Under the pieces are notes generated by a model, which was given only the letters and a program-made list of their open reading frames with translations, had not been told where the DNA came from and searched no databases. DNA of 64,000 nucleotides, from assembly GCA_022511145.1 (NCBI GenBank), contig JAFLSC010000002.1:4208-68207 (forward strand), written 5' to 3'. A program made the position numbers and the translations under genes. Source of the stretch: Helicobacter sp. (GTDB lineage Bacteria; Campylobacterota; Campylobacteria; Campylobacterales; Helicobacteraceae). Positions 62,786 through 62,937 of this stretch are shown in pieces. The stretch's first letter is position 1, and every line of letters begins with the position of its first letter.

Positions 62786-62805
62786 TTGAAAATAGAAGTT
62801 TTCAA
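62786..62805. repeat. Left arm of a perfect 20-bp inverted repeat; dif-like recombinase site
   Basis: TTGAAAA-TAGAAG-TTTTCAA; exact reverse complement of 62918-62937. Confidence 0.95.
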
Positions 62806-62917
62806 ACTAAAAATTTACGCAAATAAGGCATTTACAAGAGTTTTTAAAAAAGAGTTTTAAATGTTCTTAATGAAAAGAGTTTGCGATATTTAAGGAAAAA
62901 ACAGATACAATAAAGTA
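62806..62917. promoter_or_regulatory. 112-bp candidate invertible promoter segment
   Basis: TACAAT (+) at 62906-62911 and TAAATT (-) at 62812-62817, each exactly 6 nt from an IR; AAGAGTTT three times inside. Confidence 0.6.
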
Positions 62918-62937
62918 TTGAAAACTTCTATTTTCAA
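62918..62937. repeat. Right arm of a perfect 20-bp inverted repeat; dif-like recombinase site
   Basis: TTGAAAA-CTTCTA-TTTTCAA. Confidence 0.95.

Follow-up and report, generated by a model that had tools for sequence, protein, structure and literature searches.

Invertible promoters that are served at several loci by a recombinase acting in trans are represented by the capsule promoters of Bacteroides fragilis with the invertase Mpi, the RecV sites of Clostridioides difficile, and the fimS element of Escherichia coli with FimB and FimE. Mpi is a serine recombinase, and FimB/FimE and RecV are specialised tyrosine recombinases. Here we analyze a 64,000-nucleotide stretch of the genome of Helicobacter sp. 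(the window, C12:4208-68207 in our contig numbering), in which a 112-bp segment enclosed by two inverted dif-like sites (62786-62937) is located directly upstream of a capsule-type glycosyltransferase gene. This element is probably a member of an inverton family of enterohepatic Helicobacter, whose crossover sites mimic the chromosomal dif site and which is presumed to be driven by the recombinase XerH. As in the three systems above, short inverted repeats bracket a putative promoter of surface genes, the repeat is common to several loci, and the recombinase is encoded elsewhere. In contrast to these systems with their dedicated invertases, the sites described here copy dif, and a dedicated invertase is not detectable in three of the genomes concerned.

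The dif-like sites bring the locus close to the chromosome dimer resolution system of XerH and difH (Debowski 2012 and Bebel 2016, in PMC5357621), with which it has in common arms of ~11 bp, a 6-bp central region, the arms of the genome's own dif, and a single Xer recombinase. It differs from that system by the presence of two inverted sites ~130 bp apart, by another central region, and by inversion as the predicted outcome. Among systems with an enzyme named Xer, the closest precedent is that of Ureaplasma parvum, in which the 'XerC' protein UU222 inverts mba and UU172 at short inverted repeats, and the paralogous CodV binds a putative dif (PMC3599477). The likeness lies in a Xer-annotated tyrosine recombinase inverting surface loci; however, the Ureaplasma invertase is a dedicated copy, whereas in our case there is a single Xer-type gene and the switch sites have dif arms.

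Inversions within coding sequences are known for the Rci shufflon of R64 and for systems of the hsdS type. Similarly, in H. equorum and Helicobacter sp. S15 the 20-mer of the dif-like site joins a constant 5' part of a gene to alternative inverted 3' modules; the differences are that the shuffled gene encodes a TupA-like ATP-grasp enzyme and that the site is dif-like, and the window itself contains the promoter type only. Extra dif-like sites used by the housekeeping Xer enzyme are found in the pdif modules of Acinetobacter plasmids. Published cases also include the coding-sequence inversions of S. pneumoniae ivr/PsrA (CreX) (PMC4948785, PMC7096588) and the IMEX elements, which exploit XerCD (PMC5357621). 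Both pdif modules and IMEX elements resemble our locus in having extra dif-like sites away from the terminus, but they move or integrate DNA modules, whereas the element in the window would be a chromosomal regulatory switch of ~150 bp without cargo. Simple-sequence repeats are regarded as the basis of nearly all phase variation in Helicobacter and Campylobacter. An earlier sequence-only reading of the window knew of no described Helicobacter example of such a switch, and our literature search likewise turned up neither an inversion by XerH nor a Helicobacter shufflon or invertible promoter; a deep-learning survey mentions predicted invertons in Campylobacterales without detail.

The window belongs to a genome of 1.64 Mb (78 contigs, 35% G+C, 99.9% complete), which is probably metagenome-assembled because the ENA assembly ERZ27293309 holds an identical contig. 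A repeat finder identified an inverted repeat of 20 nt at 62786-62805 and 62918-62937, 100% complementary and with an interior of 112 nt. When up to 3 mismatches are allowed, the 20-mer occurs at only 2 places in the 64-kb window (0.15 expected), and 0 of 100 shuffles gave two or more. In each copy, palindromic arms of 7 bp flank an asymmetric core of 6 bp (TAGAAG / CTTCTA), and owing to this asymmetry the copies are truly inverted rather than direct. The gene-proximal site (62786..62805; TTGAAAA-TAGAAG-TTTTCAA, TTGAAAATAGAAGTTTTCAA) and the gene-distal site (62918..62937; TTGAAAA-CTTCTA-TTTTCAA, TTGAAAACTTCTATTTTCAA) delimit the predicted invertible segment (62806..62917), which is A/T-rich and matches in architecture the 100-111 bp interiors found in other Helicobacteraceae. 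The best -10-like hexamer, TACAAT (62906..62911, plus strand), follows AAGGAAAAAACAGA, lies 6 nt from the distal site and is directed away from the glycosyltransferase in the assembled orientation; it is a putative promoter element read from the sequence. The gene that the switch would control (60534..62768, minus strand) encodes a 744-aa protein with Glyco_tranf_2_2 and Capsule_synth (KpsS-like) domains, homologues of which are annotated as capsule-biosynthesis proteins in Campylobacter and Helicobacter. Its leader (62766..62785, minus strand), with the ribosome-binding site (RBS) AAAGGA at 62775-62780 and the ATG at 62768-62766, abuts the proximal site. The sequence-only reading had started from perfect 20-bp repeats with opposed identical cores around 112 bp, from the positions of the ATG, the RBS and TACAAT, and from a surface-glycan glycosyltransferase as the target, and in all these respects it holds.

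The dif candidate of this genome, gtaTTGAAAACTGCAATTTTCAAact (TTGAAAA-CTGCAA-TTTTCAA), is located at C17:1123-1142, ~70 nt upstream of the xerH open reading frame (ORF), and is assigned as difH on the basis of its sequence and its position beside xerH. In H. pylori, difH is linked to xerH and has the arms AGTTATGAAAA and TTTTCAAACT (PMC5357621), in agreement with the arms given for this species in the sequence-only reading. The xerH ORF comprises 351 aa, reaches the contig end and matches H. pylori XerH from end to end (PDB 5JJV/5JK0, E = 2e-107). The dif/XerH site architecture suggested for the repeats is supported by alignment to the true dif beside xerH: both 7-bp arms are identical, with two differences among the six core positions (CTTCTA vs CTGCAA). 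The genome contains seven exact TTGAAAA-N6-TTTTCAA sites, four of them in cassettes and one being dif. Unlike the single terminus dif, the four extra copies sit as inverted pairs at two glycan loci; the switch site would act like a dif site and is not the dif. A six-frame Phage_integrase search of the genome returned one gene above threshold, on C17, and two sub-threshold fragments of 54-61 aa. Neither a serine recombinase (PF00239) nor an IS110/Piv-type enzyme (PF01548) was detected in this genome, the recombinase searches being limited to Pfam PF00589, PF00239 and PF01548. In this genome, Helicobacter sp. HAN016 and H. equorum, XerH is the only Phage_integrase-family match, without any serine recombinase, and IS110-type enzymes were found neither in these three genomes nor in S15.

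Comparison across genomes showed that the switch sites have 12-nt arms which follow the dif arms of their own genome, lineage-specific positions included. In S15 and H. equorum the dif arms are TATTTATGAAAA and AAAGATTGAAAA; one S15 promoter site has both of these arms around a new core (24/24), and the shufflon sites carry AAAGATTGAAAA. In genome G143, all four switch arms are TATTTATGAAAA, identical at 11/12 positions to the dif left arm AATTTATGAAAA. In the Helicobacteraceae metagenome-assembled genome G178, two switch arms are equal to the dif right arm AAAGTTTGAAAA (12/12). The dif arms of the genome studied here are TTGTATTGAAAA and AAAGTTTGAAAA, to which the inner-facing switch arms AAGTATTGAAAA (left, of the distal site) and TTAGTTTGAAAA (right, of the proximal site) correspond at 10/12 positions each, and the inner 7 bp of all four window arms are identical to dif. 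Each genome uses one switch core that is common to all its switches and distinct from the dif core: TAGAAG vs CTGCAA in this genome, TGGTAA vs CTATAA in H. equorum and S15, TTGCTA vs CTGCAC in H. himalayensis, and TATGCA vs CTGCAC in G143.

A search for pairs of TTGAAAA-N6-TTTTCAA sites 95-125 nt apart yielded 9 loci among genomes sampled at one per GTDB species and 10 loci in JGI metagenomes. Opposed cores are confined to the Helicobacteraceae matches; those outside Helicobacter have an identical core in direct tandem arrangement and were dismissed as unrelated. By a relaxed pattern (inverted dif-like pairs with an interior of 100-112 bp), 7 of 173 Helicobacteraceae species from 4 of 14 genera were positive, and an order-wide sample of 401 genomes gave no cassettes outside Helicobacteraceae. 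This genome has two cassettes, the second of which precedes an acyl carrier protein (ACP) gene, and HAN016 has a cassette at the orthologous ACP locus. The G178 cassette (core CTATTC, 100-nt interior) is upstream of a FabH-like gene, as read by eye from the translation. The cassettes of H. equorum, the human bloodstream isolate S15, H. himalayensis YS1 and G143 have arms of the form ATGAAAA...TTTTCAT/A and interiors of 110-111 nt, and in all four genomes they are located between divergent nonulosonic-acid operons. One side of these loci comprises a cst-I-type sialyltransferase with neuA and neuB, or NeuB with an epimerase, or cytidylyltransferases, and the other side a cytidylyltransferase and an HMGL-like gene. 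Every cassette neighbours surface-glycan genes. In H. equorum (L122, G139:C4), TACAAT faces an operon of a cst-I-type sialyltransferase (PF06002), a CMP-sugar synthetase and NeuB, which suggests inversion-controlled sialylation in this equine Helicobacter.

Inversions at such sites were observed in the relatives. Among 10 cassette places fetched for the S15 lineage, 9 have a 100% identical 111-bp interior and identical flanks and are divided between two orientations (5 vs 4), the flipped interiors matching at 111/111 positions once reverse-complemented. Between species, with the conserved cytidylyltransferase gene as the reference, it is only in the flipped state that the G143 interior aligns to its counterparts in H. 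equorum, S15 and H. himalayensis: the flipped scores are 13, 25 and 17.5, respectively (reached by ~2%, 0 and 0 of 2000 shuffles), and the unflipped ones are 3.5 (p ~0.5), 5.5 (p ~0.35) and 7.5 (p ~0.045). For H. equorum itself only two assemblies were found, with equal orientation in both. In H. equorum and S15, the switch 20-mer with the core TGGTAA is also present in frame, encoding ENGNFH, inside the TupA-like ATP-grasp gene beside rpoN, and one or two silent inverted 3' modules at this locus open with the same 20-mer. The constant N-terminal 256 residues of the TupA-like protein are 91% identical between H. equorum and S15, and the expressed C-terminal module of S15 has 81% identity to a silent H. 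equorum module and 40% identity to the expressed one. Moreover, a precise inversion between the TupA-like sites distinguishes two assemblies of the S15 lineage (1815/1815 bp reverse-complemented, with a right flank of 2041/2041). Since the sites recombine both in the S15 lineage and between species, a pure operator or RNA-structure reading is ruled out for the cassette family, which very probably constitutes a real site-specific inversion system. The shufflon is located between rpoN and a HAD/aminotransferase/ATP-grasp cluster (L067, G139:C9:63500-70000, in H. equorum and L068 in S15), and its silent C-terminal modules are 40-56% identical to each other, so that enzyme specificity may be phase-variable.

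The second cassette of this genome (C8:30897-31046) has the same site pair, with a single change in one core (TTTCTA), and a 110-nt interior. The block containing it and the window share 87% identity along 295 nt (E = 1e-96); the matching region spans window positions 62771-63065 and includes the leader, the cassette (~87% identity for the segment between the sites) and then distal repetitive extragenic palindromic (REP)-like DNA. The C8 cassette precedes a glycan-modification operon with genes for an ACP, a short-chain dehydrogenase (SDR) and an AMP-ligase, and its orientation relative to the downstream genes is the same as that of the window cassette. When 40 relatives were searched with the locus at the nucleotide level, the matches were the C8 paralogue, REP-like repeats and glycosyltransferase 5' ends only, and no orthologous cassette was retrieved. 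Because the glycosyltransferase homologues in other species (G002 and G017, and also ones with 91% and 67% identity) have a helix-turn-helix gene upstream and no cassette, the sequence comparison indicates that the cassette was placed before the glycosyltransferase recently.

In the mechanism that we propose for the window locus, each 20-mer would provide two XerH-binding arms flanking a 6-bp central region. XerH dimers would bind both sites, the ~130-bp A-tract-rich segment would loop, and strands would be exchanged at the borders of the identical cores; with identical and opposed central regions synapsed by XerH, the 112-bp segment would invert. The heterology between the central region CTTCTA and the dif core CTGCAA would block crossing with dif. 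In the assembled orientation, the outward promoter with the -10 hexamer TACAAT would fire away from the glycosyltransferase, leaving the gene off or at a low level. After inversion, TACAAT would be 6 nt from the proximal site and followed by a ~40-nt leader that takes in the site, the RBS and the ATG, which would turn the gene on; the flipped arrangement would be TACAAT-aaagta-site-ataag-AAAGGA-caaatt-ATG, and its junction would read ...CAGATACAATAAAGTA-TTGAAAACTTCTATTTTCAA-ATAAGAAAGGAC. The paralogous C8 cassette, with its matching core, would control the ACP/SDR/AMP-ligase operon. Both this operon and the glycosyltransferase are predicted to be unexpressed or low in the present state.

The window locus is a member of the inverton family by its architecture and by the behaviour of like cassettes in related species, from which we infer its own switching. 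As regards the putative promoter, TACAAT is present in the cassettes of 6 of the 7 species (G178 has TAATAT), an A-rich tract AAG(G)AAAAAA upstream of it is common to this genome, H. equorum and S15, and in the S15 lineage TACAAT faces either operon depending on the orientation. That XerH is the inverting enzyme appears likely from the sites and the gene content, and we lean towards the view that this particular copy still switches and has TACAAT as its promoter.

Several observations weigh against this model. All 9 assemblies compared from this lineage, two for the glycosyltransferase locus (the window and the ENA contig L035) and seven for the ACP locus (contigs L100-L103, L106, L110 and L111, from several samples), have one orientation, with TACAAT directed away from the glycan gene. 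For a 50:50 switch such uniformity is unlikely, so this copy has a strong bias, flips rarely or is locked. In the window sites, the outer arms match dif over the inner 7-8 bp only. A simple sigma-70 scan, which is not designed for Campylobacterota, did not call TACAAT, and a weaker -10-like box, TAAATT, faces the gene now, mirroring the position of TACAAT at 6 nt inside the proximal site; the switch may thus alternate between a strong and a weak promoter instead of being strictly on or off. At difH, XerH is reported to be FtsK-dependent (PMC5357621), whereas here it would have to act on sites that lie ~130 bp from each other and outside the terminus. Finally, the S15 reference genome encodes a second tyrosine recombinase, of generic type and 322 aa long, which might be the invertase in that species. 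The Xer/dif-type inversion proposed for the window in the sequence-only reading is supported in part: the like cassettes of related Helicobacter do invert, but the assemblies of its own lineage have one orientation.

The uniform orientation, the short match of the outer arms and the -10-like boxes facing the glycosyltransferase would all fit a locked relic, in which the window and C8 copies are effectively fixed members of the inverton family, the sites being kept by recent duplication or by another XerH-binding role, and a weak facing promoter such as TAAATT is constitutive. A 2-nt frameshift in the ACP gene that follows the C8 cassette, suggestive of decay, points in the same direction. Yet the window cores are perfectly identical and opposed, the cassette has reached a new gene in recent time, as judged from the homologues that lack it, and invertons biased towards the off state are common among the known systems. 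In addition, a polymorphism at the core edge (TAGAAG vs TAGAAA) occurs among strains in all four distal/proximal combinations (A/A, A/G, G/G and G/A), as expected if the sites still exchange strands; heteroduplex cores after strand exchange would give these combinations, but ordinary inter-strain recombination could give them too, and they are an indirect hint. On balance we regard the locked relic as unlikely. Still less probable is real inversion by an enzyme other than XerH, either a tyrosine recombinase that varies among strains or a member of a family not yet recognised, with the dif likeness due to shared site ancestry or mimicry. Direct evidence of flipping comes from the S15 lineage only, and this lineage does encode the second recombinase in at least some strains (its exact sequence is present in 55 collection blocks vs ~165 for the switch-flanking genes), and only three Pfam families were covered by the searches. 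However, this genome, HAN016 and H. equorum, the latter with a 3-site shufflon in addition, have intact identical cores with XerH as the sole match, and the covariation of the arms with dif, up to 24/24 and across four genera, is hard to explain unless a dif-binding protein reads the arms.

The reading without any recombination is the least probable, and we give it very little weight. It would take the 20-mers as operators for a dimeric protein, possibly XerH acting as a repressor, over divergent promoters, or the whole unit as an element like a miniature inverted-repeat transposable element (MITE). Each site is indeed a near-palindrome at a promoter or leader position, and the unit is present in two copies with ~87% identity. 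Against this, inversion of the like cassettes takes place precisely at their sites, and the sites are also found inside a coding sequence, at the junction of its constant and variable parts. No Rfam match was obtained for the element at E up to 1, and a terminator scan of it found nothing. The MITE version was rejected on three grounds: target-site duplications are absent from the flanks, there are only two copies, and the homology passes one repeat into REP-like DNA. The sequence-only reading had offered operator-overlapped divergent promoters as its alternative, which is largely ruled out by the inversions in relatives together with the covariation of the switch arms with dif.

Returning to XerH-driven inversion, we consider the chances evenly balanced that in several enterohepatic Helicobacter the dimer resolvase XerH doubles as a phase-variation invertase. 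On this reading, inverted pairs of extra dif copies, with dif arms and a core that is private to each genome, would be 'channels' by which one essential enzyme switches promoters from one sialylation or capsule operon to its alternative and shuffles the C-terminal modules of the ATP-grasp enzyme, and the lineages concerned would include that of the human bloodstream isolate S15. If XerH is the true catalyst, then a conserved single Xer recombinase would have been recruited to regulation by a copy of dif with a new central region, and the system would represent a clean natural case of spacer identity partitioning the targets of one tyrosine recombinase. The controlled genes make sialylated and capsule-type glycans of the cell surface, which are among the main determinants of interaction with the host, and a switch of this kind would explain antigenic heterogeneity among these gut bacteria.

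Some further observations concern the sites and their surroundings. Two more exact TTGAAAA-N6-TTTTCAA sites of this genome are singletons, at C37:66-85 (core AATGGC) and C56:60666-60685 (core AATATC), which may have arisen by chance or be orphan sites for XerH binding. Logan contigs that start at a site or at the core single-nucleotide polymorphism fit a heterogeneous population, but the paralogous cassette and polymorphisms account for them as well, and they were not counted as evidence of switching. Some contigs end at or beside dif-like switch sites, which may contribute to fragmented assemblies along with other possible causes. The tenth cassette place of the S15 lineage (L092) and the locus L087 were not used in the orientation counts; both are on scaffolds, with interiors of 40 and 65 nt, and their differing truncations look like scaffolding artefacts. 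In L087 and L092 (ENA ERZ16268125 and ERZ16268123), the HAD-side TupA-like shufflon site is joined to the promoter cassette and the cytidylyltransferase, reflecting either a large rearrangement between distant same-core sites or a scaffolding artefact. The 322-aa recombinase of S15 (L060/L120, G141:C9 at ~24 kb) adjoins an Eco57I-like methyltransferase fragment and is ~16 kb from dif.

The ACP gene located 3' of the C8 cassette (C8:31066-31365, L021/L110) has the 2-nt insertion catttaTAagag relative to Helicobacter sp. HAN016, leading to an early stop; it is called as 76 aa rather than 98 aa in two independent assemblies of the strain, and may be decaying or restart-dependent. The REP-like repeat DNA that adjoins the distal site in the window (62938..63065) is duplicated along with the cassette at C8, and a 73-aa ORF within it is probably spurious. 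This dispersed repeat, found in the window at 62938-63110 and 59650-59900 with the motifs cgtcattatggg and ttgccacgaaaa, has >15 copies across many contigs of this genome, occurs also in several congeners, and gives rise to spurious ORFs such as 62964-63185.

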